NCBI GenBank assembly: GCA_020137815.1
Contig: CM035350.1
Coordinates: 8,618,001-8,682,000 of the forward strand
Source of the DNA: Hormiphora californensis
Taxonomy: Eukaryota > Animalia > Ctenophora
DNA length: 64,000 nt
Reading direction: 5' to 3'
Position numbers and translations under genes: made by a program
Shown: piece by piece, positions 12,700 to 49,610 of the stretch
Layout of the letters: each line of letters begins with the position of its first letter
Position numbering within the stretch: the first letter of the stretch is position 1
The notes under the pieces: model-generated
Told to the model about the DNA's origin: nothing
Database searches by the model: none
Seen by the model: the letters and a program-made list of their open reading frames with translations, nothing else

Positions 12700-12854
12700 C
12701 TCTGTTGGTGATGCTGATGATGATGATGATGATGATTGATTGATGTTGCTGTTGTCCCTCCACATCGGGGTGAGTAGTGAGGTTTTGGGGACTCACAGGG
12801 ACTGTTCGAGGAACCGTGGATGTTGGTATTGTTGTTTGCAGTTACGAAATACAT
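12700..12854 (-). CDS. Candidate alternative Kv first exon E: MYFVTANNNTNIHGSSNSPCESPKPHYSPRCGGTTATSINHHHHHHQHHQQ
   Basis: 155 nt (3n+2), open frame, donor AG|GTAGGC. Confidence 0.5.
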
Positions 12855-13980
12855 ACTCTTCCATATTATATTACTAGGAGGACATCAAGAAACAACTCCA
12901 TATTATATTACTATCCAGAGAAGGACATCAAGAACAATCTTGAATTATTATATACTCAGCCAGGGAAGACCTACACCCGCAAGCAATATAGGAAAATCAT
13001 CGGGGCGATGAGGAGAGAGAGAAAAAGATGAAAGAAAGAAGGGGAGAGGATGGCAAATTAGTAGCTGGGTGGCTGATGTTAGATGTATGCAGAGGGTGTA
13101 TAATACGAGCCACATCCATAGCAAAATGATAGAGGGTCGAATACTCGAATCGTTTAGGTCCTCTCCTTTTTCTCTCTATCTCTCTATCCCTCTCTCTCTC
13201 TCACTCTCTCGATCATTCCCTCCCATCTCTATGAGCAGTGTGATGCGACAAAACATAGTAATAGTGCGAAGTGTATGTCTTTATTAAAAAGTAATAGAGA
13301 GAAGGAGAGAATGTTAGGTCTGGAAAGTCGGAGTGCCGGACACGATAAATTCTATCGAGAGAGAGAGAAAGAGAGCTATACGGTGCTTCTTGCGCCGACA
13401 TAATGTGTAGGTACGCTAGAAATAATAATCCATTTTAATAAAGTGGACGGTGGTGTATTACATATTGTATAACGGAGATAAGGAAAGGGAAATTGTGACT
13501 GGGCGAAGAAAGATGGATCAGATGAATGACATAGGAGATAGAGAATGAAAAGATGGTCATGGGAATGTAAAAATTAATGACCGAGATGGTTAAAGAAGAA
13601 AGTTGGAAAGTTTACCTCTTCGGTTAAGGTTTGGAAATTGAAAGGTGGATTAAGGTGATCTACAATGAGAAATTGAGGGGTTCTCTCCACCTCCAGGGTG
13701 CTGGAATATAGCGTTATACTCCACAGGTATGCAAATATTCAAATCAAAACTCATGGGTTAGTTATTTATATTTTAATATCAAAACGATAAAATACATGAA
13801 CACTAATTTTGCTGTTATTCTGAGCAGGTCTGAAAGCCGGAAAGCCATTTTAGCAACGAAGATATTTCAGTCCGGGATGAACCAATATAATAGTACCCAT
13901 TTCAACTAGAATAAATCAGGAACCTGGCTGATACGATTGGTAATATAAAGGATGACAACCATTCAATGGTATATACTCAC

Positions 13981-14096
13981 GCTCGTCTAGATACGGAGCC
14001 ATATTGCGGTGGAGGAAGAGGGCCGTGGTGGATGGGGTGCTGGTTAAACTCATACGAGTTACTCTTTGACGAGGGCTGTACAAACTCTGCTCGCAT
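13981..14096 (-). CDS. Candidate alternative Kv first exon F: MRAEFVQPSSKSNSYEFNQHPIHHGPLPPPQYGSVSRR
   Basis: 116 nt (3n+2), consensus donor GTGAGT. Confidence 0.5.
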
Positions 14097-14349
14097 ATCG
14101 CAAAAAAGGGGGCACAACACACAATATATACACGCTTTCGATAAAAACACACACATGCACACACACACACCCCCCTCGGTAGCAATTAAGTTACCAAGTC
14201 CACAACATATGTGTGTGTCACGACACATGTCGACAGAGAGAAAAGGGGCGGGTGCAGGTCCGCCGTGCTGGACATGCAAATTAGTCGGACCAAGGACGCC
14301 TTAACGAGAAGCTCCTTTTCCTCTTCCTTCCAAATGTTTTTTTTTGTTA

Positions 14350-15030
14350 AAATATGTCCATTAGGGGTTACTAAGTTGAAAAATATCGCTTTCGAACATT
14401 ATGTTTGGTATTCAGTGGGTAATGTCCATAATGCAAGTCTATTCAGCAGTATATAAAGATGTCTCTACTAGAAGTTCTGTGGATATTGCTCCCGTTATAA
14501 TGAAGGTCTGGCGTCTACAGAATTATCATCCTCATCATCAATTGTAGCGGAGTTCCTTCATCCTAAGCTGCAGCAGCCCTTAGTTCCAAGATCCAAAACA
14601 AGAAGATGACCATCTTTGCTCCATTCGAAACAGGAAAATCATGATGTTTACATGGTTAGTGATGATCTTCATCTGGGTTGTATGACATGGAAAGGTAGAG
14701 GCCGGTCGCCACGATCCCAAGGATGTACACAAGACAGATGAGATAGGCAATTGTATCACCGTGTTTCCGCACAAATGCTCGCAAGCCCGGAGCATACATG
14801 GCTACAAGAAGAAAGTGGAAACTGACTAGTGAAACCAGCAAAGTGTGTGTTTGCAACGTTTTGCATTGATTCAATACCGAGGAAACGTATACCAAGCGTT
14901 TAGCCGTGAGACACTTCTTTCAACTCTACCAACCTCAGTCTATTAGGTTTTTAATTAGTAAGTCATTGAAATACGCTGTGATGATTATGATCGTTTGATC
15001 CAGTGATAGGGCCTAAATGGTTTTATAATC
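14350..15030 (-). pseudogene. Decayed 7TM/GPCR-like remnant
   Basis: Hydrophobic segments occur in GPCR-like order (ALSLDQTIII; KKCLTAKRLVYV; IAYLICLVYILGIVATGLYL; KMVIFLFWILEL; RRQTFIITGAI; QLSNP), broken by stops and frameshifts. Confidence 0.3.
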
Positions 15031-15254
15031 TATAAGTACGAGCTAGTATTACATATTTATCGTTCCCATGGCTTGCTCTTAATGACCCATCATGCTTTTC
15101 TTCCTTTTCTCTTTTGGCTTCCTCAGAAGTTCTGATTTCCTTTACCAATTGCCATCTTAATTCCCCTATCTCTCTATTCCTCTATTTCTCTCTCTTTCAA
15201 TCCCTCAGTCTCTCTCCCTCATCTGCCCCTCTTCCAGCTTCCTCTATAATATTC

Positions 15255-15421
<167 letters not shown>

Positions 15422-15425
15422 TTAC

Positions 15426-15514
15426 GTTCCATCAGGAGTACCAGGAGTAGTGGCTGACAGGCTTATACGCCTGTCGCGGTTCTTGTTCATTACGAGTCGT
15501 GTAGCCGCAATCAT
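15426..15514 (-). CDS. Candidate alternative Kv first exon G: MIAATRLVMNKNRDRRISLSATTPGTPDG
   Basis: 89 nt (3n+2), consensus donor GTAAGT, MIAAT start shared with exons H and I. Confidence 0.75.
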
Positions 15515-15749
15515 GATGAAACCTTTTTCACTCAACAAATGCAACGGGCAATGACACGCTCAAATGACAGCTCAAATAGCACGTGTCTTTCGACGACACT
15601 AGGCAGAGGCAACAACAATACAGACCGGAATTAAGAGCTAAAAACAAGGTTGCATGTGTAATACACCAAGAGACTGGTAGCGTTGTTTGGTCATCGTGTT
15701 CAGGCACGAACCCAATGTGCCTGCTAACAAATCACCACAATACACTTAC

Positions 15750-15916
15750 GTCGAACAGAGGCTGTGTTGTATCCTCGTTTCAAAGTTGGATAACCGAGAA
15801 AATGGCGATTTGAGTTCCACTACGACATTCCCGTCGAGTCTTGTACGGACACCCGCGTGGGTCGCCCTGACACCCTGCCGACGGGCTCGGCGGGATGCGG
15901 CGGTGGCTGCAATCAT
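15750..15916 (-). CDS. Candidate alternative Kv first exon H: MIAATAASRRARRQGVRATHAGVRTRLDGNVVVELKSPFSRLSNFETRIQHSLCS
   Basis: 167 nt (3n+2), consensus donor GTAAGT, acceptor-like CTCTCTAG 22 nt upstream. Confidence 0.75.
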
Positions 15917-16748
15917 AGCCAGCGTGGCAAAATTGTATCTAGAGAGTATAGAGCTAGTAGTAACTCGATAAGATGATGATGATGATGATGATGAAGATGA
16001 TTAGCACATGCAGGCTAACATACGATCTTGAAAGAATCTAAGAGAGAAGCAATTAGCAATTCGGAATAGTATAGTAACGATGTCTTTCCGTTCGATTCTC
16101 TATACTTTTAGTGATCTAGACGAATAGAAAATACGCTATCATTTTTAGGCAAAGTCTTCTATTTTAATAACATCAACAAGCCTAAGATAGAGATCAACAA
16201 TTCAAGTTAATGACTGCTTTGGAAGTCTGGTTTAATGGCCTTTATCTCTATCTATTATTCTCCCTTTCTCTCGACATTTTTTGTTCGCTTCGATTTACTC
16301 CCTTCTCTATCCTCCCCAAACATCATATCAATTTCCTTTCTATTTCTCAATCTCTTTTTTCCTCTCTCTCTCTATATCTATCTCTCTTCTTTATGTATCT
16401 TATTCTCTCACTATTTCTCTGATTCTCTAACTCACTAACTGCTAGACTCGCAAGGGTCGGGGTAGACAGAGTGCACATCCGGTAGATTAAAACCCAGCAG
16501 AGTACCCATCAATCTTAGACCAGAGAGACATTAGCTACAATGAGAGAGGGGGCATAATATCAAGATACGAACAGTGTGTCATGTGGGTTCAAACATAGTA
16601 ACTAAATTTAATCACGGTACACGGTTATCAATAGAATTACACATGATGTGAATCATGATTCAATCATTTGACATTCGCTGATTTACAGTTATTGAAGGCG
16701 TAACTCCTAGCGTCAGTTTGAAAATAAGAGAAAAGAGAGAGAGAGATA

Positions 16749-16795
<47 letters not shown>

Positions 16796-16814
16796 GAGAG
16801 ATATAGGGAGAGAG

Positions 16815-16897
<83 letters not shown>

Positions 16898-18170
16898 TTC
16901 GTAAAAGAGTTACAGCTCAAGAAAGAGAGAAATGAATAAGGGAGACTGGAGCCTGGTGGTATCTCCATATGTAGTATTACGCGCTGTAAGATAACATACA
17001 GATCACTCAGAACTCCCAAATTGTGTGTGAGCTCCTCTCTACTTGCCCGCCCGTATCCCTCTCTATTTGTACCTCGGATCCCTCTCTATTTACCCATCTC
17101 TCGCAATCCCTCTCTTCTATTGAATATGGTTATTGGTCACCGATCGAGCTGAGAGGTGCCAGCATGAGTGTGTATAAGAACAAATACACGCCCCAACTGC
17201 AGCTGTACCTAAATCACTGTATCAAATCATCAGCTATGTTATTCAAGATGCATTTGTAAGATATATGTTTGATTAATCGAATTGACATGCTATATATTGT
17301 ATTCTAAATGATGCAGCAAGAACAAACAGAATATATTACAAATGGAGCAGGGGGAACAGTTCAGCCACTTCAACTCTGGTACACTGTTTCCGCACCAAAA
17401 CAGCAGCTCTAATATAGCGGATACAACTGCTCTCCACCAGCTGCTGCAGTTTCTCAGCGGATAGAACCATTAGATAGGTCGACCCGTTATACCGCAGAAA
17501 AACAACGCAGCTCTCCCCGCAGCCCCCATGATATTGCAGCTCATGCCAGAAATGCAATGATTTTGTACACGCACGTGGACAAGAAGTTCCAGGTGGATAT
17601 ATCGTGTATCTTGAAAGTACAGATCTCTGGACTATAACATCAGTTATGATGACCTGTGTATTTTGTGGCAAAATATACTGACAATGATCGACAGAAAGTG
17701 GGCAAAGAACTTGTGCCTGCTAAGTTAGTAAGCAGTAAACACCAATATTAATAATCATGATTAAAACTCGGGTGGTCTTGCTCTTCTTGTAGACTAAAGA
17801 TCAACAGGTCCTGCATACCCGCGTATTGTCCCTCATTGGCATGAAGTGTCTTCATAACTAATGCATAATGCAAACCAGACTTATTTAGGTCTAACCCGGA
17901 AGAAGTGCCTGGTTTTAATAGAGTTTACCAGGTTGGTAAGCCTAAATGGAGGCTTCAGTTCTATACTCTCTTCTCGCTGCCTATCACGGTCTGCAACCCA
18001 TGGTATCATACATGGTGCTAAACCTGCTACCTGTAATTTTATTGCAATTTTATCCCGTGTTACCTGGATGTCGAGGAATGGGCCTGGATGGAGGCCGCAG
18101 CGTAGAATGCCATCCTCCTCACATGCAGTAGGGGTCCCTTGTTCCTCCGCTAATATCAGCTGGTTCTAGT

Positions 18171-18279
18171 CAGGAACCGACCGAATCAGGAAATACTAGT
18201 CCCTGATTGGCTAATAACCAGTCACGTGACCTAAATAACGAGTTCTGATTGGTTGTTTACTTGTTTCGGTCGGTTCCTG
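18171..18279. mobile_element. ~109-bp hAT-like MITE (abundant Pleurobrachia-type repeat)
   Basis: TIR CAGGAACCGACCGAA / TTCGGTCGGTTCCTG. Flanking 8-mers GTTCTAGT / GCTCTAGT form a TSD with 1 mismatch. It translates like the 'EPTETSKQPIRTRYLGHVTGYQPIRD' junk I recall from P. bachei gene models. Confidence 0.85.
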
Positions 18280-20167
18280 GCTCTAGTCAACAACAAGAGT
18301 TTCAAACAAGCGCTGCAATATATTATATGTTTGGCCCGTATTAGACCTCTAACTAAAGATGAACATAATCCTAATACAACAGCCTACTACTGCAGACTAT
18401 AGTTTTAATAATAATGGTAAAGTAGAAGGAGCAATATATTATGTATTTTTCTACTAAAAATCCAATGAAAATCATAAACCATTTGTCTATCTTTTTTCTA
18501 CATAAAATTGAATATTTCTCTAGCTCTCTCTCTTCCCTCTATCTTTATCTCTGAAACCTTGATTTCTTTCTCTCATCACGACTCTCTCAGGTGGTTTGTG
18601 GTTTGCAAAAGAAGCACAATGTATAAAGAAGTCAAAGCTCCTCCCCTACTGCTGTTTGTTTCTCGTTTATCTCTCTATACAGAAAGATCTAGAACTTTTC
18701 TCCTTTCTCCCTAGACTTTCTGACTCACAAATTAACCGGCATTGCCTAATGTCTTTAAGGATCGGTAGGCAACTAGTTCAGAAATAGGCTATTTAAAATC
18801 TGAGGAGATCGTGATTTCTTGATGTATCAGTTAGAAATGAGATACAAGGTGTTAATCAGTTAAATTAAAGCAAATTCTGCTTAGAGTAGCTATGAGTTGT
18901 ATGTCTTAATGACGTGAAGAGATCAGATCGTATCGTTTACTACTTGATCAATAGATGATAGATCAAACATAGAGAGGAGAGAGATACACTGGAAGGAAAT
19001 ACGATAAAGAAGAGATAAGTGAAGAAGAAGTAAGAGGGAAGTAAGATGATATAAATAAAAGCTGCTTTTCGCCAGGATCCGACCACAGAAACGCTATATC
19101 CGATACTCAAAGAGTTTTCCTACCATACATACAAGCAGGGAAAATCCAGGAAGAATTCTACGAAATCTAAAAAGGATTCCAGTGGCAAGTGATCGAACCC
19201 ACTTGCCCTTTCCAACCAGCATAGAGAGAGGGATAAATAAATTGCTTCATAACCAAGACGCTAAAGAGATGGCGATAATAAGTGGCATGGGTATATTCAG
19301 TAGTACAAGACACAATCGGTAGTAGGGAGTCGGCCCTTGAATTACCACACAAGTGTGTGTACATCTTGAATAGAAGATATAGGGGCAGCTGGGATCATTC
19401 ATCAATAATGGCAGACTGGGACTCTATACTATCTATCTCTCCGTATCTCTCTGTAATAGGGTTTGTGTATACATTATCTTATTGGCATCTGGATACACAA
19501 CGTCGGAGCTACTTTTTACCTTATAATGGTCTCCCAAAGAAAGAAGAAGCCCAACTCTCTTTCTTTCTCTCTCTCCTTCTCTATCTCTATCTATCTTTCT
19601 ATATATCTCTCCCTATCCCTATCCGTCTCTCTCAATCTCTCTCCTTTGTTATCTCTCTACCCTGGGAGTCCCAAGTTCCCTTTCTTCTCCATCTCCAATC
19701 TCGTCAGTGAACTCCAACTACTGTTTCTAATCTCTGCCACGGTACTATGATTATACACGTTTATCACTGTGTGATCCAGTTCGTAATCACAGATCTAGAA
19801 GGAATAGAACTCAGTCCAGTTCATGGGCGCGGTTCTCCGAGGACAAAAGCAGACTGAGAAACATTACATACAACTTCAGAGTAGGGAGGCAAAATGAAGT
19901 ACATTACTGGGCTCCATCATCTCCATACCAGAGCTGCATGACCGCAGAATTTCCCCCAACAACATTGCAAACCTGATCTTTTAGTTTAACAACGTCTGGA
20001 AATTTCTTAAATTTACAGTCCACACAACACATGGTGTTCAGTACAACTTTCAAGAACTCACTTCATGTTTATAATATTTCAAAAGAAGTGGTATCTTGTA
20101 GATATTATAACCGAACCTACGGGTGTGGTACCTCAAATGAAGGAGATTTCTAGAAAATACTACCTAC

Positions 20168-20295
20168 CCTGCGATCACCATTGTTGAAAGGGTGGCCGGG
20201 AACTTGCCCCCCTTGTCCCTCAGACTCGGTCGGTAGTACCCAAAGTATCCCGCTCGGCGGGAGCGGCGGCTGGAAAATGCCGTCGCCGCGATCAT
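20168..20295 (-). CDS. Candidate alternative Kv first exon I: MIAATAFSSRRSRRAGYFGYYRPSLRDKGGKFPATLSTMVIA
   Basis: 128 nt (3n+2), donor GG|GTAGGT, N-terminus clearly similar to exon H. Confidence 0.75.
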
Positions 20296-20420
20296 GACAC
20301 ACAGTACAGATTTATGTCAAAGCAAAATGTTGAAAAGAGTGAGAGATCGGCGCGGGAGAGAGGGAGACCGGATGTACATGCAATGCTATAGGGAGGGTAT
20401 TTGAAAACAATGGACTGTAC

Positions 20421-20572
20421 CTGTTCCAGCTGTTTCTCGTGGATATCCTCCTCTTGACACTGGGGACGCCAATCTCTGACAGTAGAACTTCCATCTCACT
20501 CGGTCGCCTGGCAACGCCATGACGACGGTTTTCCACGCCATGGCGTCGAGTGAGGTAGCTTGCCCCGAACAT
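20421..20572 (-). CDS. Candidate alternative Kv first exon J: MFGASYLTRRHGVENRRHGVARRPSEMEVLLSEIGVPSVKRRISTRNSWN
   Basis: 152 nt (3n+2), donor AG|GTACAG, hydrophobic then Arg-rich. Confidence 0.6.
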
Positions 20573-20783
20573 GGTGCGACGCTACATTTACACACAACGG
20601 TCGGAAAGAAAGAGTGATTTATTATATACTTTACACAGACAACTCAAAAGTTAATCACGAGCTTCAAATGATGTGATACATAGAGACAGGATTATAAAGA
20701 TTAAGAAGGCATTTATCAACGTCTTTTTCTCTATTCCTGTCTATCTCTTTCTCTCTCACTCGATCCCCTCTCTCACAATCTCC

Positions 20784-20840
<57 letters not shown>

Positions 20841-22584
20841 CTCTCTCTCCCTTTCTCTCCCTTTCTCTCTCTCTCTCCCTCTCCAACTATTCCTCTCTCT
20901 CTTTCTCTCTCTCTCCCTTTGTTTCATTTCCCACTATCACTTGTCCCTTCTATGATGCTCGAGTGATATCATGCCCGTTATAGATAGAGATCAGTGAGCT
21001 CCAGACAAAGGCAGCTTCTGTGAGGGATCGGGATAGATATCTACGCGAGAGGGAGGGAAGGTAGAAAACTAGAGGGAGGGGGAGAGAACTAAAGAGAGGG
21101 GAGAACTAGAGGGGGAGAGAGAGGGAAAAGAGAACTAGAGGGAGTGAGTGTGGGAGAGGGGGACAAAGCCAGAACTAATAATCACCGCCCTACTGACTGG
21201 ATATATCATATAGGGCAGCATGATACCCTCCCAGAGGGATATATTCAAGCACAAACACATCATGAATAAATTATACGTATCACAAATCTGCAAACAGTTT
21301 CTCGTAATGGTAATTATAAAATGGTCGGTATAAAGATGTTACTTTTTACTACAGCCGATAGAAAATGATCTATACGACTGCAGTCGACTGGAAAATTACG
21401 GATTTAGTTAATCACAAGATGCAAAAACCTCACACTCTTCATTAATATCTTCATCAACCCCTCTCTGTCTCTCTCTTTACAATCTCTCATCCTTCTTACT
21501 AGCAAATATTAGAGGGGTTAATTTGGAGATGAAAGTGCAGCTCACGTGCCCAACGAACTTCTCTAGAGACGCACAGTGAGGATGAGAAAGATATAGCGAA
21601 GGAGAAAGTCAGAAAGGCCAAGGAGCTGCTGGAAGATAGAGAAAGGTTCTTCTTCTATAGTTCTTCGAAAACTAGCGTACTCTACAACGACCCGTCTATC
21701 ATTTCCTCTCTCTCAAGACCATTTCGGCATCACATGTGCATAGTCATTAGTTATTGGTACTGAAAAACTAGAAGAGTCAGAGTCAGATAGAGTGGAGAGA
21801 AATAGAGGGAGCTATATTGTATTGTTTTGTGCCATTGTAACAGTAACACACGAGTTGTCACACACCCCCTAGAAAGCTGAGGAGCTGCACAATACTCCTC
21901 ATAGTAACATATACTCGGCGCTCCACACAAGGTTATTATTCGTGCTGTCAGGGAAGGTACGGGAGGGGCATGTTCCGAACTTGTTTAGGGAATTGCAGGG
22001 ACACTTGTCAAGCGGGCGGCTACCGACCAAAGCTCTGCAGTACACCACCTGCAGCAGTGTATGCAGATTTCTTATTATGCAAGGTCAACATGACAATGGA
22101 GAATAACTGCTCCAGGCAACTACACAAGGATGCGGGATGCCTAATTAAAATGCAGGTCGGAACCTTACTTTCCTATTCTTTAGTCCTAACCGCACACATA
22201 TGATTTATTCTTATGGATTATCTTTTTCATAAAATCATCTGTATTATCTCTGCAGGATTTTAACCGACTTCTATCATTTTGAGGTCATCAAGTACGTTTC
22301 TTTCTCTCAGTGACCGGAGGACCAATTAGGGAAAGACGTGATGTCCTCATCATACTAAGATCATATATAATAGATTCATGTGAGCTAGTTACCGTCATAC
22401 AAAGGTCAGGCAAGGTTGACGGATATGAAATACTTACTCTAACGCAACACTGTCGGAAAAGTGATCTGCGAATCGAGAAACTGCTCGTATAGGCTATAGT
22501 AGGCATGATTATGTATGATATAAAAGGCAAACCCAAGTATATATGGCGACAGAAAGAACAGAGCTCAGTGAGAGAGAGCGAGAG

Positions 22585-22687
<103 letters not shown>

Positions 22688-24475
22688 TGACCACGAACAA
22701 AACTCCACTGTCAAGTATCCTAAAACAAACTAGACAAGTCTCAGTGGTCATCAATTGCGTCACACACGACACTACCAAGCAGCAGTAGACTATCAGTAGC
22801 TCTCATGAATATATTGCTGGCTGCTGCCGACTATCATGGTGAGGGATATTGGATCCTACTGATCAACACTTGTATCCGTCAACACCGTGTCAAAAGCGTG
22901 GACTCTATGGAGATTGGAGATTAAAAACAACAACTCATTCCGTCAAAAAACAGTGTGGATAACTGCAGATGTGATGGCGATGAAGAGAGAGGCGATTTCG
23001 AAGAAGAACACACAATGTCAACTTCGTTCTTCTAGCTAACTTCTATTGATGGTACAGATCGATTATCTTCATCATCAATCTCCATCACCCTCTTTCGAGA
23101 TCTATCTTATGGACATGGCTTCACAATCAAGCGATATGATGATCATTGATTGTACTTTCATGATATATACATTCTCGAAGAGAGATCAGATCTTGCAACT
23201 TGTGTATACACTGGCCACAATCCTACACACACATGGACTTCATATACCAACTGGGTGTCATTGTGTCTAATATGAAGAACCATGTACAAATCACTCAGGC
23301 AGGGATTTTAGAATGGTGGAAATGTTGAATATTTCCAACAACACCACCAATGTGGTACAACAAGCAATGGTTTGTGCGGTAGTAGAAGGGACTAGCTATG
23401 ACTCTGTTGGAGTACAACAAACAATGGTACAATAGAAAGTATTGCACATGATCTAAAATTGCAGGGAGGAGAGGGTGAATATTGTACTCGTGGGTAATAA
23501 AGAGGGCCAACAATGCAGTGTTACCACTCTCCTCCCCTCCTCGGTCTCTCTGCAGTGTTGCCACTCTCCTCTCACTGCCCCTTCCCTCGGTCTCCTCGCC
23601 GTTTTAATTCGAAATGACATGGTGCAAACAAAGAAAGACGTTTAGAGAATTCAAGGCACCTACTTTCTCATTCACTATTGCTATATATCTACTCTATGGA
23701 GAAAAAACATGTTCATTTCGGAGTTTATCATATATCCCTTCTGTTGACAGCTGTGGGGAAAGCATTCTATGTTGAGATATATAATAGCAGTACAGTAGTA
23801 GTAGTAACTACGTGTCTAAACCGTACCATGATAGATCACGCTTTATTTCTACATGTCTATTCAGACTGAAGGCTCTGAGACTCTTCTTCTTCTTCTTCTT
23901 CTGGGAGCACTAGCCAGTAAGGGGTGGGTGCCATGAGGCTCCCGTTCCCCGTCCTGGGTGATGTGGCTGGTATGTTGTCAAGCTGCTTCGGCCCAAGGAG
24001 AGCTGGTGCTATACCAGATCACAGGGGAAACCTCCCTTTAAGGGGTGGAGACTCTTGTCACTCAGTATAAATGGAGAAGTAGTACATCTACATTTTGTCT
24101 ACTCTCCTAGACCTACACCTACAATTGTCTGGAAGCATACACGCCACACGGATGGCAGTACATCTCATAATGATCTCGTAATAATACTCACTCATCTCAA
24201 CATCCCTCTCTGCAAAGGTACTTACCCTTCATTTCTACCCTCTCACATGTTTATTGAATATATTCAATAGATGGCATTATTTGAATCCTAGCCAAAAATT
24301 AACTGACTATGAACTATGAACTAACTGGAGAGGTTTGATTGAAAGAACAAATTCCTCGAAGTGGCAATAATGACAACATCTTAAGGGTTAAAGACCACGA
24401 AAATACAGCATACATAATACAGCATACAACAGTCGATGTATTATAATATAGCGGAAATCAACCCCCACCACTTAC

Positions 24476-24579
24476 CCAAAGTGTTTATAGCTCCGTTGTG
24501 CTTCCCGAAGATCGTGTGTATCATAGAGGGCGTGACGTCGACCTCGAAGTCGAGCATTAATGGCCTCCGCAGTAAACAT
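24476..24579 (-). CDS. Candidate alternative Kv first exon L: MFTAEAINARLRGRRHALYDTHDLREAQRSYKHF
   Basis: 104 nt (3n+2), consensus donor GG|GTAAGT, acceptor-like CCCCTTATAG 11 nt upstream. Confidence 0.7.
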
Positions 24580-25084
24580 TTCAACAAGAGCTATAAGGGG
24601 GGCAATAAACAGCAATTCAAGGAGAAGGCATGTGTATAACTAATATAAAGGGGGGAGAGTATAGGAACTATAGGAGCTAGTATATCGAGATAAAAGGATG
24701 GAGGAAGGGCTCAAGGGCTGGGGAAATACAGCAGGACTGTAGCTTATTGATATATCGTCCATTAAGGGCTGCTCGAGGTCCGCTGAGTAATGATGGCCTG
24801 CTGAAGACCGCAGATTGGAGATAATTACATAGCCAGAGAAGGAGAAATATCTACAATTACTAGTAAAAGACCGCGTGGTAGTGGGCCGGATATGATTTTG
24901 GACTACACTGCATTAGAGATTGGAGAAGGAGCTCTCTAACGGTTGTGCAAAGTCATTAATTTCTTCTATTCACCAGTATTAGTAATACCAGTAATACTTA
25001 TTGCTCTTCTCCTTGTTCTATACAGCTTATTTCCCATGCAGATCAACTTTTCTTTATCTAATCTCTTGTTTTCTCTCTTATCCT

Positions 25085-25186
<102 letters not shown>

Positions 25187-25936
25187 TTCACAACTGTATT
25201 ATACAATGCATCAACAATCTGTAAAGGAAAAATTAAGCTCCTCCTCAGTACGGAGTTAGCAGGAGAGAAGGATGGTGTATAAAGTACTATATGTATATGA
25301 GTGATTATGTAAAGTCACTCTTTCTATTAAGCGTCAATAATTGCTCGAATTGATATAAACAATCACAGCCTGTTATAATTTCCGTTAACCATCATTCTTC
25401 AGGTTGTTGATGACGTTGGTCCAATGTGATCCAAGGTGGTCCAAGATGCTTCAAGGTGTTTCAAGGTGGCCCAAGTTGGTTTGGCTGATAGTTTCTCAGT
25501 ATAAAACGAGGTGTAGAAACAATCCATGAAATTGGATATTATGTACATCTAAAAATTTTCAACATTGTACAATATCGAAGGAGAACTAAAAACCTATCCA
25601 CACTCTACCAATACAACCTATTGTGGAAATGGCTCCAGATAGGCACCGCAGGATCTTTTGTGAAAGGAATGTTACAAATAATGTCAGGTCATCTAAAAGT
25701 GGATGACGGAAGAAGATCGCTTCTTAATTTTTATAATTTTATAAGCCACTAATGCAGTGTATCAGCAATACTACACTGTATATTATTAATTGCCATAGCT
25801 CTTCCGTGATCCGTACCAACCAATAAAGTACTTTGTGGCCGATGCCCCCACCCTCTTTTACAAATGTAAAGGAGGGATAGAACAGAACAAGTACCATCAG
25901 GGTGGGTCAGCTCCACACGGACAAACAAGTACTTAC

Positions 25937-26288
25937 GTGGAGAGATTGCAGTTGGAGAGTTCAGTTTCACTTCCGCTGTCCCTGAGGAGCAGGCTGCACT
26001 GCTGTGAACTAAAATGAAGGGATGTCAACAACAGATCAACACAAAGGATGAAATGCACAAGCTCTAATTAATAACCTACCCAATGACTGCGCTAGTACTG
26101 TTGAAATCATCTTTGAAGGAGGAGAATAGTTTCTCTGTCACGGTGGGGGAGGGTGCTGAGTTGGTGTTAAAGCTTGTCACAGCCGCTGCTGTGATTGTCA
26201 TGGCTCTGGCCCTCCACCGGGATGCAGCTGTTCTCCTTTCTTTCTGCTGCTGATTAGCCACATTGCTAATCGAGAACATGCTCTGCAT
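25937..26288 (-). CDS. Candidate two-exon alternative Kv N-terminus M: 26288-26080 (MQSMFSISNVANQQQKERRTAASRWRARAM...SAVI) plus symmetric exon 26008-25937 (SQQCSLLLRDSGSETELSNCNLS)
   Basis: The first exon is 209 nt (3n+2) with donor GTAGGT. A 71-nt intron ends TTTTAG. The second exon is 72 nt, phase 2-2, with donor GTAAGT. Confidence 0.65.
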
Positions 26289-28907: not shown

Positions 28908-29017
28908 CTGCGAAGATTGTTCCAGTGATTCGGTTCCATGACAACGAACTGTCTTTTCTTGTACTCTCTGTTCATATCCTTGAATATCTGGACTGCTTTA
29001 TATGCTGCAAACGCCAT
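28908..29017 (-). CDS. Candidate alternative Kv first exon N: MAFAAYKAVQIFKDMNREYKKRQFVVMEPNHWNNLR
   Basis: 110 nt (3n+2), donor AG|GTATGT, acceptor-like CTATCATTTTAG 18 nt upstream, ball-like composition. Confidence 0.7.
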
Positions 29018-35847: not shown

Positions 35848-38800
35848 CGCGACAACAACATCAACTGTCACATATTAACACACATATTGACATCCCCTCT
35901 AGGAAGATCCAAGTTCTCGGCACGGCACAGGAATTCCCCACGAGGATCTGAAGCGATCACAGATTCAGGGGGTCAAAGTGCAGTAGTGGATGAGCAGCAG
36001 CAGGAACTAATGGCAATCGATCCTAACGTTATGGAGATATTCGAGCATGTCAGGTGAGTTGTGTTGGACAGGTTATACAGTAGGAACTCACGAGTTGCAA
36101 ACCAAACAGAGGTCAGACATTGTCAGACAGGGGGAGTCACTTATACCTCTTATTGTTATAAGAGGTCTGATGAATGGTGGTGAAGTGGAAGGATTAACTA
36201 AGTAGCAGCTACTTAGTTCTGGCAGCGAAGTAACCATGTTAACACTTCACCACCTCTATACCGCAACTCTTTCAGCAGAACTATTTTCAGAAAATAATAA
36301 AGCATGGCAATATATTATCATGAATTATAGCATAATAGCAATAATTCCGGGAATATGTTAAACGGATGCAGTATAAGTAGCTGAAGTAATAATTTTGACA
36401 CGTGCAACATGAAAACCGCATGGTGGCGTTATGTCTAAGAAATGCAGTAGGATGTGAGATGACTTGGCCTTTGAGTGAGTGGGAGAGATATGGAAAGAGA
36501 GAGGAGAGAGATAGAGAGCGAGCGCCCGAGAGAGAGAAACTGAGTGTCAGGAATAGCACGGAAATAGATACCCAAGTGATATGCTAGAGTGTGATGGGCG
36601 TGAGATCTTTCTAACAATGCAAGTCATGTCAAGTGTACTTATAGTATGACGTGGGACTTCCTCGTTCCTCAAGGTGTGATCCATTATATAGGTCACAGAC
36701 ATATATTGTCGTCTGTCATCAAATATATCCATTAATTCTGGCGCCACAGCCCCGATCCCAGCAGGGCTCGAGATAAATTGGGTATGAGATTCCCTGACTT
36801 ACTTTCCCATCCCTATATCTTCCTTTCACCACACTCCTTACATTCTTGTTGAGTACCCTAATCCACACTCCTTACATTCTTGTTGAGTACCCTCATCCAC
36901 ACTCCTTACATTCTTGTTGAGTACCCTCATCCACACTCCTTACATTCTTGTTGAGTACCCTCATCCACACTCCTTACATTCTTGTTGAGTACCCTCATCC
37001 ACACTCCTTACATTCTTGTTCAGTACCCTCATCCACACTCCTTACATTCTTGTTGAGTACCCTCATCCACACTCCTTACATTCTTTTTGAGTACCCTCAT
37101 CCACATTCCTTACATTCTTGTTAAGTACCCTCATCCACACCCCTTACATTCTTGTTGACTACCCCCAACCAAACTCCTTACATTCTTGTTGACTACCCTC
37201 ATCCACACTCCTTACATTCTTATTGAGTACCCTCAGCAACACTCCTTACATTCTTGTTGAGTACCCCCATCCACACTCCTTATATTCTTGTTGAGTACCC
37301 TCATCCACACTCCTTACATTCTTGTTGAGTACCCTCATCCACACTCCTTACATTCTTGTTGAGTACCCTCATCCACACTCCTTACATTCTTGTTGACTAC
37401 CCTCATCCACACTCCTTACATTCTTGTTGACTACCCTCATCCACACTCCTTACATTCTTTTTGAGTACCCTCATCCACATTCCTTACATTCTTGTTAAGT
37501 ACCCTCATCCACACCCCTTACATTCTTGTTGACTACCCCCAACCAAACTCCTTACATTCTTGTTGACTACCCTCATCCACACTCCTTACATTCTTATTGA
37601 GTACCCTCAGCAACACTCCTTACATTCTTGTTGAGTACCCCCATCCACACTCCTTATATTCTTGTTGAGTACCCTCATCCACACTCCTTACATTCTTTTT
37701 GAGTACCCTCATCCACATTCCTTACATTCTTGTTAAGTACCCTCATCCACACCCCTTACATTCTTGTTGACTACCCCCAACCAAACTCCTTACATTCTTG
37801 TTGACTACCCTCATCCACACTCCTTACATTCTTATTGAGTACCCTCAGCAACACTCCTTACATTCTTGTTGAGTACCCCCATCCACACTCCTTATATTCT
37901 TGTTGAGTACCCTCATCCACACTCCTTACATTCTTGTTGAGTACCCTCATCCACACTCCTTACATTCTTGTTGAGTACCCTCATCCACACTCCTTACATT
38001 CTTGTTGACTACCCTCATCCACACTCCTTACATTCTTGTTGACTACCCTCATCCACACTCCTTACATTCTTTTTGAGTACCCTCATCCACATTCCTTACA
38101 TTCTTGTTAAGTACCCTCATCCACACCCCTTACATTCTTGTTGACTACCCCCAACCAAACTCCTTACATTCTTGTTGACTACCCTCATCCACACTCCTTA
38201 CATTCTTATTGAGTACCCTCAGCAACACTCCTTACATTCTTGTTGAGTACCCCCATCCACACTCCTTATATTCTTGTTGAGTACCCTCATCCACACTCCT
38301 TACATTCTTGTTGAGTACCCTCATCCACACTCCTTACATTCTTGTTGAGTACCCTCATCCACACTCCTTACATTCTTGTTGAGTACCCTCATCCACACTC
38401 CTTACATTCTTGTTGACTACCCTCATCCACACTCCTTACATTTGCAGGTACGCGTGTTTGTTGGACCCTCACAACGCGTCCCAGTTGTCCCTGCTCACCG
38501 AGATTCTCATCCTAGTGCCATCGGATCGAGCTGGCAATAGCGTACCTGCATGAAACACTACGGACGATCATCAGGTAAAGTTGACCATGTACTGCTAGGC
38601 TGTATTCTAGACTATATTCTAGGCTTTGATCGGTGTTGTACTACTACTAGAACAACTTTTCAGGCGGGGAGAAAGTGCACACATATCTGAAACTAGCGAC
38701 ATGTTACGTAGAGCAGCGTAACGGGGACCAGGCCTCCAAATACCTCAGACTCTTCCGAACTGAGGGTGGTGTGGAGGGGGAGGTGTTTACTAATCTGTGT

Positions 38801-40146: not shown

Positions 40147-41472
40147 TCACACGGCCCTTCTCCTTATGGAGGCTACCAAATTGTTCCAAAACTCCTTGAG
40201 TGCTTCGTTCAGGTTGTTATCGGTAACAAGAAGTGCAAGGGGAGCTGTGGAGGCGGCTGTGATAACGATAGTCCAGGATAGGTCCACAACCATGGCCACA
40301 CCACCCTGGTGACATCCCAAGAACAGGTCAGGATAAAGGGACTGGGGGAGCCAGGGGAGAACCGTGAGCAGGTTGAGAAGTGTGATGAGAAACACAGACC
40401 AGGGAACTGATGCCCGTTCTTTTTCAAACATCTCCTTAGATCTTTTAGCCCTTAACTGCCGAGCTACGAGCCTCTTTTTCTCCTTTCGTTCCTTTTCTTC
40501 TCTTTCTTTCTTCTCTTCCTCACTCTCTATCACTCCATCCTCTAACAAGGTACTCCCCTCTCCCTCCTCTCCCTGCTCCCTCTTCACCTTGTGTTTTGTT
40601 AGCATCATGTTAGCTACCATCAACTTGCAGGCTATCCCGGAGAACGTGACTTTGTTAGCTGTAGCCTGGACCGCCCTGTACTGGTCCACATTATGTAGAA
40701 TGAGGGGGTAGAGGATAATTGATCCTATTGGAGGCACCAGGAACCCCACAGATATTAGGATGATGGAGTGTGGGATGCAGAGGGGCAGGGGTCCTGAGTA
40801 TCGGCAGTATCCAGGGGTCGCGTCAGGGCTACATAATCCAAAGTTGGAGAGGTTGGAGAGAAATAGGGCCAGAATAAGAATTCCAAGGGCACCTGAAATT
40901 GAAGGGTTGTAGTGCTAGAATATATTACAAATGGCTCGAAATCAAGATCTAGTTCAATTGCTGGGAAAGTTTCAAACAGGGTCAGAAGCATAGAGGGGGA
41001 GGGGGGTGCAGGGGCATAAAAAATCGAGAATGAAGGGGCAGTACATACCCAGTGCCTGGTTTCTGATGGTCAGCATGCCCCTCCAGGTATCAGGGTACCT
41101 CAGGAAGATATACCGCACTGTGATTATCCCCAGAGTTGTGTAACCAGGAAGCATCATGGCAGTGGTATGGAGGGGGAGGGAGATGGAGCAACCTCCCCAG
41201 CTCTCCACAGGAACGAGAGAGAGGAGTAGAGAGGATAGGAGGAGGAGGTTAGTTATAGCGAACACCCCCACTGAATTGTACAAGTGGTGGAGGGGCCGAA
41301 CTAGTGTCACCGCGAATAGGAGCACCAGGGACGACACAAGAAGGGTGAAGAGGGCCGGAATAAAGATGATGTTTGACATTATGTTGTCTGTAAAACGGCC
41401 GCTGACCCGCTCCGCAAGAGGATCCTGACAGGACGAATTGCTGGATATATTGTCCATGTCCATATTGCTCAT
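40147..41472 (-). CDS. Orphan class-A-like GPCR, 2 exons (41472-41049, 40892-40147), ~389 aa
   Basis: A phase-1 GT-AG intron joins the two ORF-track fragments into one 7TM frame. It has N-glycosylation sites (NISS, NSS), a Cys at the top of TM3, 'TVRYIFLRYP' (DRY-like), ECL2 cysteines, a charged ICL3, TM6 'VLPWLP' and helix 8 'LNEALKEF'. Confidence 0.85.
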
Positions 41473-41802
41473 ATATCTCGTGATTTCTGGGTGTCTGGTA
41501 TCTGTTGAAGGGAGGTACTGCGGGGAGGAATATCAATAGAAGATACACACTGAGAGCCTTACAGGACATTGTTGGAGGAGGGAGCTAGGAGAATATATTG
41601 TACTCTCTGAGAGGAGAGAATAGGGACAACAATGGAGGGGGGGGATCGTACTGTATGGTTTCCTTAAGCGGGTGGGTGATTTTATTCGCTAGAATTGTAC
41701 AAGGAAATAGGAGTTAGGGAGTGATGGCGGGAAGAGAGCTAGAGTCATGAGAAATGTTTAGCACAACAACATTTAATCAGGTAACCTGTTGTGGTGTGTG
41801 TG

Positions 41803-46074: not shown

Positions 46075-48464
46075 CTAAGTCTTTTCGCCGCTGATATTTG
46101 AACAGTCGGTAACCAATTTAGGGGAGGTCAGTGTCAGTTTGGGTTTTTTAGAAGGACTAGTACTGCTATTTGAACCACCCTGTCCCATACCTCCACCACC
46201 TCGTGACCTTGGCGGTAGCTGGGTGTTAAAAGTGTTCGGTAGAGCTCCTTTACTCACTATCCCTAGCACGTTTCTGTGTGCCTCTATCAGATGGTGCACA
46301 TAGGCGTCAAATGAGGTGAGTGTGAGGCTACAATGGGTGCACTTGTTGCCTGGTCGATTAGGGGTTGTAGCTGCTGGAGGCGCTGGAGCTGCTGGGATAG
46401 GGGCAATGGGGGCGTGGTGTCGAGTAGGGGTGGGTGAGGGAAGATGTCGTATTGGGACTGGAATTGGAGCTGGTAGGGGATCAGTTTGTAATGGTGCCAG
46501 ATCCAGTTAAAGATGCCCCTCCTCCCCCTCTCCCTTCTTCAGCCCGTATCTGCTGGTCCCATTCTGCTAACATTGTACTAGTTATCCTGATCCTGTGCTG
46601 TTCCGTTACATGCCGCTTCAACTCGGACAACTTGTCTCCAGTCCACACACAGCCGGTAACAAAACAGCAGTGGTTCCTTGAGGCAGACCGGGGTCTAGTT
46701 GTGCTAGAGGTTGAGGTAGTTGTTAGGGTCGGTTCAGTTAACTCTAACTTGGCCTCTGGGTGTTCCCGCTGGGGCGGCTGTTTGGGCGGGGGGATGGGGT
46801 CTTTATAGAGGAGATTCATCAGGTACGCCTGGTAGAGGTAGTACTGGTGTAGGTATTGCAGATCCGCTAGCGAGAAAATGGGAGATTTAGGAGGAGCGAG
46901 AATGGGGCTGGGTATAGTTGGTTTTATTGAAGTTGGAATTGCTAACCCAGCTAACCCAGCACTAGATAACATACTCTCCGCCTTGCCAATTTGCCGCTGT
47001 GATTGCAAGATGTGATTCAAAATGTCCTGTTTCCCACATTCATCCACAACTATTTCCTCCTCTGCTGGTGGACCCGGGGACACTGCACGGGCTGCTGAGG
47101 GGGAGGGACCCTGACCAGCAGGGGACGGTTCTCCCCCTCGTCCTGAGGAGCTGCAGGGTGAGATCCCCGAGGAAGAGGCTGAGGCAGTAGCAAGGGGCCG
47201 GGGTGAGATGACCATGGGGGTGGAGACAATCGGGAGGGTCTTGGGAGGTGGGGAGATGATGAGAGGGCTCTTGGGTGTCAGGCTGGGTGGTGAGAGGAGT
47301 TGCTCCTTCCTCCTGACAGGGGTTCTAATAGTGGGGGAGGGGGAAGGAGGTTCCCCCTTCCTGCATTTCTCTCCATGCTCCCTCAGATCGTGTACACTGT
47401 CAAAGGACACTGAACACTCCTTACACCTGAATTGTCGGCAGGCAAAGGGCACGGTTAAATCACCTATACCATGGGCTCTGTGGTGGTGTTCTCTCAGCTT
47501 ACTGAGACTATCGAACACAACCTTAGTAGTACAGTATCGACACCGCTTTAGGGAAGTCTTCTTGCTGGAAGATCCCTTTCCAGTCTTCATCCGGGCATTC
47601 TTGTGGGCTGACCGGGGTTTAGGTTTCTGCTCCGACCCCCGGTTTACATGTATCTTATCGAATATGTTGGAGGGTGCTGGAGTGGGGGAGGATGGTGGTG
47701 TGTATAGGACATTATCAATATCAACACTTCTCCTCTCCATCCGGACCACTTGTATTACTGGTATCTCACCAGCCTCTCCTTTGCACTCCTCATTATGTCT
47801 CGTCAGGTGCTCCTCTCGAACCGTTATAAAGAGACAGTGGCTGCATTTATATACATGTTTCTTGGCCCGGTGAGCTTTCATATGGCTGACTATGTCACTG
47901 TTTGCGTTGCAGACGAACCCGCACCGGTGACAGGTGTACTCCTTAAATGTTCGTTCGTCCGTGTGTGGTCCAGTCGCCAGATGTTCCTTCAGAAGCAATC
48001 CTGGGGAGGGAGGGGGTGTTAGGGAGATAGAGGATATTATAGAGAGTGAGATGAGTGAAGCAGGTGTGTGGGAGGGTAATAAGGAGAGAAGATGAGAGGG
48101 TGAGAAAGGGAAAATAGCACATTACAGAAAACATGCTACAACCATCCTAGGGATTTAGCAGCTAGAAAACATTGTGTATTGGTCCTTGTGAAAGTGTTAA
48201 TGTTACAATGCTAGGGGGAATGCATTAACAGAAGGGGTACCCCCCATTTTAGGGCTAATCACTCTCCTCCTCTCTCACACACTACTGTCGCAACACTACA
48301 CAGCTATCATCGCATACCCCCCTCCCTCAAACTACTACATTATTACATAGTGTGCATTTTATGCTGTAGTATATATAAAACCATTTCTTCGCACGAATTG
48401 ATGTGATACATTCTAAGGTGCAAGGATGATTGGCTTGCAAAAAACACAGAGAGAGAGTGTGTGA

Positions 48465-48521
<57 letters not shown>

Positions 48522-49354
48522 TGCAATCCCCCCGGTACACACAGACACCGTCCCGTGATTAGCTCCCAATCCTACACACTCGTATTGCTGTTGTATTGCA
48601 TACACACAGGCATGCATCACAATACAACATCTCTCTCAGCTCGCTCTCTCCCTCTATTTCTTTCTCTCTTCAACTCTCCCTCTCCTTCAAGTGCACGTGT
48701 ACTCAGTACTGTATGTGTGGTGCCGCCCCAGGCCCCCTTATTATACTGCAGCAATACCCACAGACATGTACAGACCATATTATTGCACAAGATCTCTCTA
48801 CAGCTGTATAATAAAGAGGACAGATCTGTGATGTGTAAATTCATATCCAGCTGCTCCTTATTAAATATTCATATGTTTATGCACCTATTATATCACTGTC
48901 TACTACCAGACTACATGAAAATATGATTGTAATCTATGGAAAATAGGGGAGGGGGGGGGCTAGAAAATTATCCTAAAAACCTAAAATAATAATTAAACAA
49001 TTGATTTCACTCACCCTGAGAGAATATCTCGTTGCAATAAGGACACTCGTATTCCTCCTCTTGGTCCCCCGTACAGTGGTCCACGTGGGCCGTCACATGC
49101 CTCGCGTTAACAGAGCTATAACTGCACATGGGGCACTGGTATCTGGTGGGAGCATGGCCAGTCTTCTTGTGGGCTGACATTGTCACCTTACTGCGGGTTA
49201 GGAACCCACAACGACTACAAGCTAGTACTCCCTCCTCGGTGTGTAGGGTTCGGTGTAGGGCGGCTGAGGGGAGATCAGGGGCCGTGTAGGCACATTTCCC
49301 ACAGTCCAGTGTGGGAGGAGGGGATGATGGAGTGGTGGATCCCTCACATACCAT
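46075..49354 (-). CDS. Multi-C2H2 zinc-finger protein. Exons ~49362/49354-49015 and 48000-46075, with an apparent 1-nt frameshift at ~46505
   Basis: About ten CxxC...H/C fingers. The phase-1 splice completes the finger 'CPYCNEIFSQGLLLKEHLATGPH'. A further finger 'CTHCSLTLTSFDAYVHHLIEAH' and an NLS-like PSKKPK lie in the shifted frame beyond the ORF-track stop. Further 5' exons may exist. Confidence 0.85.
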
Positions 49355-49610
49355 GTCACTTCCTGAAATTGGGGGAATTGGTGGTGAACAAAATTAGATG
49401 TAACAAAAAGGCGATTTAAATATTCGTAAAATTGGTGAAGAAACAATTGCAAAAAAAGGTCAAAGCGTGTCTCTTTCTCTCTCTGTCGCTCTTGTGTTTC
49501 ACAAATTTCAACAAATGATGATCGAGCACAGCAATATTTCTCTCGTTCGGTAAAAAATGACAAAAATAACTGCAGGCATACATGATCGAGAGGTGGGGAG
49601 AAATAAAGAA

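Follow-up and report, generated by a model that had tools for sequence, protein, structure and literature searches.

In Drosophila, one Shaker (Kv1) gene joins alternative N-terminal exons to a common core (PMC2229190; PMC3519636), and the resulting variants have little sequence in common apart from the layout of an uncharged tip followed by a basic stretch (PMC2229190). Among the groups covered in one account, such N-terminal splicing of Shaker is described as a protostome strategy that is absent in cnidarians and mammals (PMC3519636). Ctenophore Shakers form a clade of their own, and the diversity of ctenophore K+ currents has so far been attributed to gene expansion (bioRxiv 10.1101/2024.12.09.627618). 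In MlShak4, MlShak5 and MlShak13 (genes ML10392a, ML141713a and ML01366a), each studied with one N-terminus, N-type block has been shown by deletion (bioRxiv 10.1101/2024.12.09.627618; PMC13749725). Here, we report what is very probably an array of alternative N-terminal exons on one Shaker-family gene of the ctenophore Hormiphora californensis, located in a 64-kb stretch of contig CM035350.1 (positions 8,618,001 to 8,682,000; the whole stretch is called the window below). Three of its exons, G, H and I, had been singled out in an original prediction made from the letters of the window, as they share the start MIAAT and a basic cluster behind it.

The locus appears to work most like Drosophila Shaker and is laid out as a variable-first-exon cluster that lacks a paralogous exon family. 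The fly gene is described with five N-termini, whereas the array holds at least nine exons and 12 N-termini are seen in Bolinopsis; the locus also differs in a 5' end resembling a spliced leader on one ctenophore isoform and in that ball function is here a prediction. As the separate clade of the ctenophore Shakers suggests, the array probably arose independently of that of the fly, and descent of its exons from the ShB, ShC or ShD exons is unlikely. MlShak4, MlShak5 and MlShak13 share the channel clade, and the S6 inner pore is near-identical to that of MlShak4, but these are other genes. In UGT1 and the clustered protocadherins the variable exons encode whole domains, are paralogues and have a promoter each. 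The present exons, in contrast, span 16-70 codons and are mostly unrelated to each other, and the likeness lies in tandem first exons spliced onto common constant exons (PMC3325998; PMC1885805). An orthologous gene with the same variable N-terminus and constant core, five of its exons corresponding one to one, is found in Bolinopsis (RefSeq XP_063693905-XP_063694026, isoforms X2-X22) and Mnemiopsis (ACHWQZ_G007462). These records come from automatic annotation alone, under the name 'subfamily A member 2-like' or as hypothetical proteins; no isoform seen among them starts with MIAAT, and they have an extra internal exon (PPELQ...) that was not found in the window.

Variable exons in front of a Shaker-family channel

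Seven constant exons (9298-4771) downstream of the array encode a Shaker-family channel comprising T1, S1-S6 and pore, that is, an N-terminal T1 (BTB) domain and a six-transmembrane core with S4 and a GYG pore. They are listed here with the three exons that share the MIAAT start (window positions; lengths in nucleotides, nt).

15426..15514, minus strand: variable exon G, MIAATRLVMNKNRDRRISLSATTPGTPDG(T); 89 nt; phase-2 donor AAC/GTAAGT
15750..15916, minus strand: variable exon H, MIAATAASRRARRQG...; 167 nt, 55 codons; phase-2 donor GAC/GTAAGT
20168..20295, minus strand: variable exon I, MIAATAFSSRRSRRAGYFGY...; 128 nt; phase-2 donor AGG/GTAGGT
9177..9298, minus strand: constant exon 1, SMAAAPG...KVVKINVSG; 122 nt, phase-2 acceptor; linker and start of T1
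8938..9052, minus strand: constant exon 2, T1; BTB_2 E 4e-4, as a fragment just under the cut-off
8112..8193, minus strand: constant exon 3, T1
7318..7825, minus strand: constant exon 4, end of T1 and S1-S3; 508 nt; one surplus base at about 7780
6998..7086, minus strand: constant exon 5, S4 and S4-S5 linker
6628..6739, minus strand: constant exon 6, S5
4771..5061, minus strand: constant exon 7, pore, S6 and stop

The frames of G, H and I are open as far as a consensus phase-2 donor, and the donor phase fits the phase-2 acceptor CAG/TTCGATG at 9298, where the first constant exon begins. As had been described, the three exons write MIAAT with differing codons (ATG ATT GCG GCT ACA in G, ATG ATT GCA GCC ACC in H, ATG ATC GCG GCG ACG in I). 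The pattern ATGATHGCNGCNAC matches three times on both strands of the window, against 0.02 expected, and none of 100 shuffles reaches three; it was derived from the observation itself, so the surprise is somewhat overstated. The Arg/Lys-rich stretches behind MIAAT are likewise borne out, with net charges of +4, +5 and +5 in residues 1-22 of G, H and I. The argument that synonymous codon differences point to selection on the protein stood only in part: in codons 2-5, ten of 12 pairwise third positions differ with amino acids unchanged, but these codons were picked for peptide identity, which makes the argument partly circular and the count no independent ratio of non-synonymous to synonymous change (dN/dS). 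Read as sequence, the third positions say only that the copies are not recent. None of the three peptides has a Pfam match.

The shared peptide with its diverged third positions had been taken as the strongest internal evidence that the exons are real; the best evidence that they belong to an array comes from the isoforms of lobate ctenophores and from exon-by-exon matches. The 16 named Bolinopsis isoforms seen (15 of the 27 cluster members, plus X2 from a second cluster) have 12 distinct N-termini and five Mnemiopsis proteins have four, all joined to the SMAAAPG constant exon. These models presumably rest on RNA data; isoform X5 is also present in Logan and X2 also in JGI. The residue before the first constant Ser can be encoded by NNC in 17 of 17 lobate-type N-termini. 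Fourteen window candidates were compared with 21 lobate and paralogue N-termini, z being taken from 1000 shuffles. Six candidates beat all 1000 shuffles, namely I, J, the 24579, 26279 and 29017 exons (exons without a letter are called by a start position) and a doubtful frame at 9609, and a clear lobate match is found for five of the nine main window exons (z 4.8-17.9). Exon I aligns with Bolinopsis X9 (P0016) residue 1 on residue 1, YFGY included (z 7.0, pairwise E 1e-4), and X9 is annotated with this counterpart peptide at its N-terminus. The Bolinopsis counterpart starts with MIAAV, so Thr5 is not fixed. The 29017 exon has a counterpart in a spliced lobate transcript, L001, from which it differs at a proportion of 0.25 of non-synonymous (pN) and 0.91 of synonymous sites (pS) over 26 codons, a purifying pattern; S1-S3 against L001, as a control, gave pN 0.12 and pS 0.82. 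With tandem variable exons of one phase joined to common constant exons, the gene has the layout of a variable-first-exon cluster. The further exons and candidates of the array are the following.

10705..10796, minus strand: variable exon C, MAASIAATLRNRSK...; phase 2; match to Bolinopsis X15 weak (z 2.2, not significant)
18064..18113, minus strand: short variable exon, MAFYAAASIQAHSSTS; phase 2; shares its first four residues with Mnemiopsis P0023 (z 2.0, not significant)
20421..20572, minus strand: variable exon J, MFGASYLTRR...; counterpart of Bolinopsis X6/X10 (E 5e-12, z 17.9)
24476..24579, minus strand: variable exon, MFTAEAINARLRGRR...; counterpart of Mnemiopsis P0002 (z 7.7)
26080..26288, minus strand: variable exon, MFSISNVANQ...AASRWRARAM, with its ATG at 26288 or 26279; corresponds to Bolinopsis X3 (z 4.8)
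28908..29017, minus strand: variable exon, the most distal one found, MAFAAYKAVQ...; corresponds to Bolinopsis X2/X5 (X5 z 13.3) and Mnemiopsis P0027
12700..12864, minus strand: weaker candidate exon or exons, either ATG 12854 with donor 12700 or ATG 12864 with donor 12797, each in phase 2; no lobate N-terminus matches significantly
13981..14096, minus strand: weak candidate exon; phase 2; not ball-like
10022..10098, minus strand: weak candidate exon; phase 2; not ball-like

Neither C nor the 18113 exon has a significant match among the 21 lobate and paralogue N-termini. The IAAT of C, which had been related to the trio, is present as described in a phase-2 exon, but the similarity to G, H and I stays under z 2.5. 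The IAATL of C also resembles IAAASL near the N-terminus of P0163 (z 2.5, not significant), a protein whose T1 and S6 resemble MlShak4. The open frame at 9431-9609 (minus strand; MHAVLAANKWRGKTIKRQQ...) has an AAxxWR motif in common with the 26279 exon and Bolinopsis X3 (z 5.8); it is doubtful as an exon, its sole phase-2 exit spotted by eye being a non-consensus GC donor, and an 18-nt stretch bounded by AG and GT follows near 9396-9379. A candidate internal exon lies directly after the 26279 exon at 25937-26009 (minus strand; 70 nt, phase 2, acceptor TTTTAG, donor GTAAGT); an internal exon is present in the lobates at a comparable place, and no sequence match to it was found. About 55 nt upstream of the ATG of the 18113 exon stands an element of about 110 nt resembling a miniature inverted-repeat transposable element (18168-18282; 26-nt inverted ends, 85% complementary), which is present in many unrelated contigs of four sequencing runs.

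The closest proteins to the channel are those of Bolinopsis microptera and Mnemiopsis leidyi (73-75% over S1-S3), and the orthologues carry PF02214. In a tree of 21 rows the window channel groups with this pair, apart from a sister paralogue clade, the fork support being modest (81/80). By alignment and tree position the gene is placed as the orthologue of Mnemiopsis ML07807a, in a ctenophore Kv1-like clade; the Mnemiopsis orthologue P0002 appears as Mlei_07807a in a published alignment (PMC11287247), and ML07807a may be one of MlShak1-3, 6-12, 14 or 16. A protein search of 1.84 billion sequences added just two fragments of this gene, P0167 and P0189. The lobate isoforms (P0009-P0027) also differ in the S5-pore linker by presence or absence of EVSEEDGE, a second splice site in the gene.

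Ball-like peptides and their rival readings

In N-type inactivation an uncharged hydrophobic tip sets the off-rate and the positive charge behind it the on-rate, and the balls of five Shaker variants have this chemistry in common, not their sequence (PMC2229190). Inside the pore the tip is extended and rests against I470, V474, P475 and V478 (PMC12460158). The first charge falls at residue 6 in G, 9 in H and 10 in I, with a tip hydropathy of 1.5-1.6, and the layout is that of published balls, G resembling jShak1 and H and I resembling Kv3.4 (PMC11287247 Fig. S1). A ball profile was defined as a first charge at residue 6 or later, a hydropathy of residues 2-8 of at least 0.5 and a net charge of residues 1-22 of at least +2. 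It was passed by G, H and I, by six of 12 window candidates and by seven of 16 lobate N-termini, as compared with 40 of 744 random ATG frames and nine of 139 other Kv proteins, and none of 2000 order shuffles reached the observed counts. On the receptor side, sequence comparison finds one change between the S6 of the window channel and that of MlShak4 (Leu for Met at the I470 position), and the Shaker V478 position is kept.

With moderate confidence we regard G, H and I as three of at least nine phase-2 exons, likely mutually exclusive first coding exons, whose peptides are predicted to be N-type inactivation plugs. A transcript would start at one variable exon, or receive a spliced leader just before it; the donor of the chosen exon would then join the acceptor at 9298, and the subunit would carry a variable N-terminus tethered to T1 through 67-93 residues. 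Once the channel is open, the uncharged tip, 5-9 residues long, would move into the inner pore and rest on S6, its capture being speeded by the Arg/Lys cluster. Where an exon encodes no basic cluster, inactivation would be slow or absent, and one pore could thereby yield a range of current kinetics by cell type.

Several observations weigh against this. The ball thresholds were chosen after the sequences were known; a ball-like sequence does not always give fast inactivation (PMC11287247), and ML07807a is not among the four inactivating Mnemiopsis channels named in one report (PMC13749725). In an unbiased donor scan the phase-2 excess was weak (four observed, 1.4 expected, 8 of 100 shuffles reaching four). 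Conservation in relatives, expected of real exons, holds for I, while no counterpart of G or H appears among the lobate N-termini seen, which cover 15 of the 27 Bolinopsis cluster members; counterparts could be among the isoforms outside that set (X1, X8, X11, X13, X14 and X20). A database search with H alone returned 70 candidates and no homologue. In four of nine exons (H, 24579, 26279 and 29017) an acceptor-like site precedes the ATG by 3-22 nt, for H as an AG 22 nt upstream, which is no significant excess over 24% (p 0.15). Contigs from four sequencing runs cover no variable exon in the two regions compared, 8580-15250 and 16900-20770 (C, I, J and the 18113 exon); as these are contigs, absence is not shown. 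Finally, in this assembly constant exon 4 carries a +1 frameshift at about 7780, between ITARNN and QDTD.

The alternative that fares best, and that we nevertheless hold to be unlikely, accepts the first exons as real and lets their hydrophobic-plus-basic N-termini steer traffic or regulation (Arg-based retention in the endoplasmic reticulum, kinase sites, lipid or partner binding, organelle targeting) with no plugging of the pore. Starts rich in Arg and poor in acidic residues would suit such signals too, RRxS sites are present in G, J and Bolinopsis X4, X9 and X16, and the best-conserved blocks are LLSEIGVPSV in J, which is far from the tip, and YFGY in I. Inactivation of MlShak3 is described as slow only (bioRxiv 10.1101/2024.12.09.627618). 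The order of uncharged tip and basic stretch, however, exceeds 2000 of 2000 shuffles and fits published balls, N-type block is known from three other ctenophore Shakers, and both roles can coexist.

It is less probable again, and in our view improbable, that the array exists to supply the gene with numerous promoters or trans-splice sites and thereby with cell-type expression, most of the peptides being passengers and G and H young, rarely used copies. Five exons keep their peptides across lineages in which synonymous sites are saturated (pS 0.82-0.91), and G, H and I retain four identical residues despite diverged third positions. In favour of passengers are the missing counterparts of G and H among the isoforms seen, the failure of nine of 16 lobate N-termini to meet the ball profile, several being very short or not ball-like, and the Met of its own (MAAAPG) that constant exon 1 carries.

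The surplus base at about 7780, if real, would leave a dead gene or one yielding only fragments of N-terminus plus T1 that lack membrane segments, since exon 4 measures 508 nt between two phase-0 junctions and reading on past the shift meets a stop after 91 codons. We consider this decidedly improbable: with an X at that point the constant region is open for 439 residues, S1-S3 is under the constraint given above, the lobate orthologues are intact, and a single assembly or allele error would be the simpler reading. That the frames of G, H and I are open merely by chance inside a long intron is hardly credible, as the three matches are all on the strand of the gene, in phase 2 and with consensus donors, and I aligns from its first residue with an annotated isoform, even if no transcript of this species was seen and the donor-phase excess is weak by itself.

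Exon choice and ancestry of the array

Returning to the array as a set of alternative first coding exons, the choice among them may be made by separate promoters or by alternative attachment of a leader, both being compatible with the data. L001, the only locus obtained from a metagenome scan of 323 candidate stretches, has a 5' end of 20 bases ending ACAAATAATTTGAG, 12 nt before the ATG. The spliced leader of Hormiphora, reported on at least 56% of its long reads, ends ACAAATTAATTTGAG (PMC8527503). This resemblance makes it likely that in at least one isoform a leader is trans-spliced straight to the first coding exon. No copy of the spliced leader occurs within the window, and I has no AG within 40 nt upstream of its ATG. 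A TATA-like word within 300 nt in three of nine exons is uninformative, and trans-splicing would hide the start site. Five sequencing runs were listed (best share 0.27), four being compared over each of the two regions named above, and no run of this species at useful coverage was found; use of G and H is predicted from the window itself. A contig from the run labelled X5, with 81% likeness in exon 2, spans the junction of exons 2 and 1 and, judged by its length, stops 2 nt past the acceptor at 9298; this hints weakly at a branch point, and we do not use it as evidence.

The claim that exon duplication built the array is favoured for the trio and does not extend to the whole. Three of 12 exons sharing positions 2-5 is a rare outcome (p ~2e-4; 66 of 400,000 simulations with the tip composition of 25 other N-termini), and the similarity of H and I persists after residue 5 (p 0.014), whereas that of G with H or I does not (p 0.18 and 0.54). 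On these grounds shared ancestry by old duplication of one exon is favoured over convergence for G, H and I, with H and I closest, although selection for this exact tip could also account for the likeness. Most other exons of the array look unrelated to each other. A z of at least 2.5 is reached in three of 91 window exon pairs (H-I, 9609-26279 and 14096-H), the variable exons have only the G/H/I tip in common, and neither the exons nor their 150-nt upstream flanks show DNA similarity or a repeat that links them. The 29017 exon also resembles the N-terminus of the sister paralogue clade (z 10), and this most distal exon is therefore likely the ancestral first exon. A bolder version of the proposal, which we regard as tentative and on the whole doubtful, would have an array that is ancient, comprises 9-12 or more interchangeable N-termini, mostly balls, picked by the site of leader trans-splicing, and is still growing by exon duplication, as in the MIAAT trio.

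Surroundings of the gene and meaning for ctenophore channels

Within the intron between constant exons 4 and 5 lies a tRNA-Pro(AGG) gene (7130-7201, minus strand). Elsewhere in the window are a nanos-like gene (56494-58109, minus strand; zf-nanos, E 2.5e-24), C2H2 zinc-finger frames (46484-49393, minus strand), two hydrophobic frames split by a likely intron (40147-41532, minus strand), which by eye resemble a G-protein-coupled receptor and have no Pfam match, and an array of 47.5 tandem copies of a 34-nt unit with 92% matches (36829-38442).

No description of the array, and none under ML07807a, was found in the literature searched, which excluded two MlShak journal papers and their supplements that could mention variants. 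The words 'splice', 'splicing' and 'isoform' have no occurrence in the main text of the preprint on the MlShak channels (bioRxiv 10.1101/2024.12.09.627618). The isoforms as such are already present in automatic annotation, and the array amounts to a variation on the Shaker design of Drosophila. If one ctenophore Shaker carries a conserved array of a dozen N-termini, this would be a second route to diversity in the earliest-branching animals with neurons. The array would also offer a natural collection of evolved balls, all on the identical pore, in which three with a common tip differ behind it, and by which the rules of inactivation rate become testable. Studies that express a single gene model for each MlShak gene may overlook phenotypes. 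If the exons do form an array of swappable balls, comb jellies would have independently invented many inactivation rates per pore, on a larger scale than flies.

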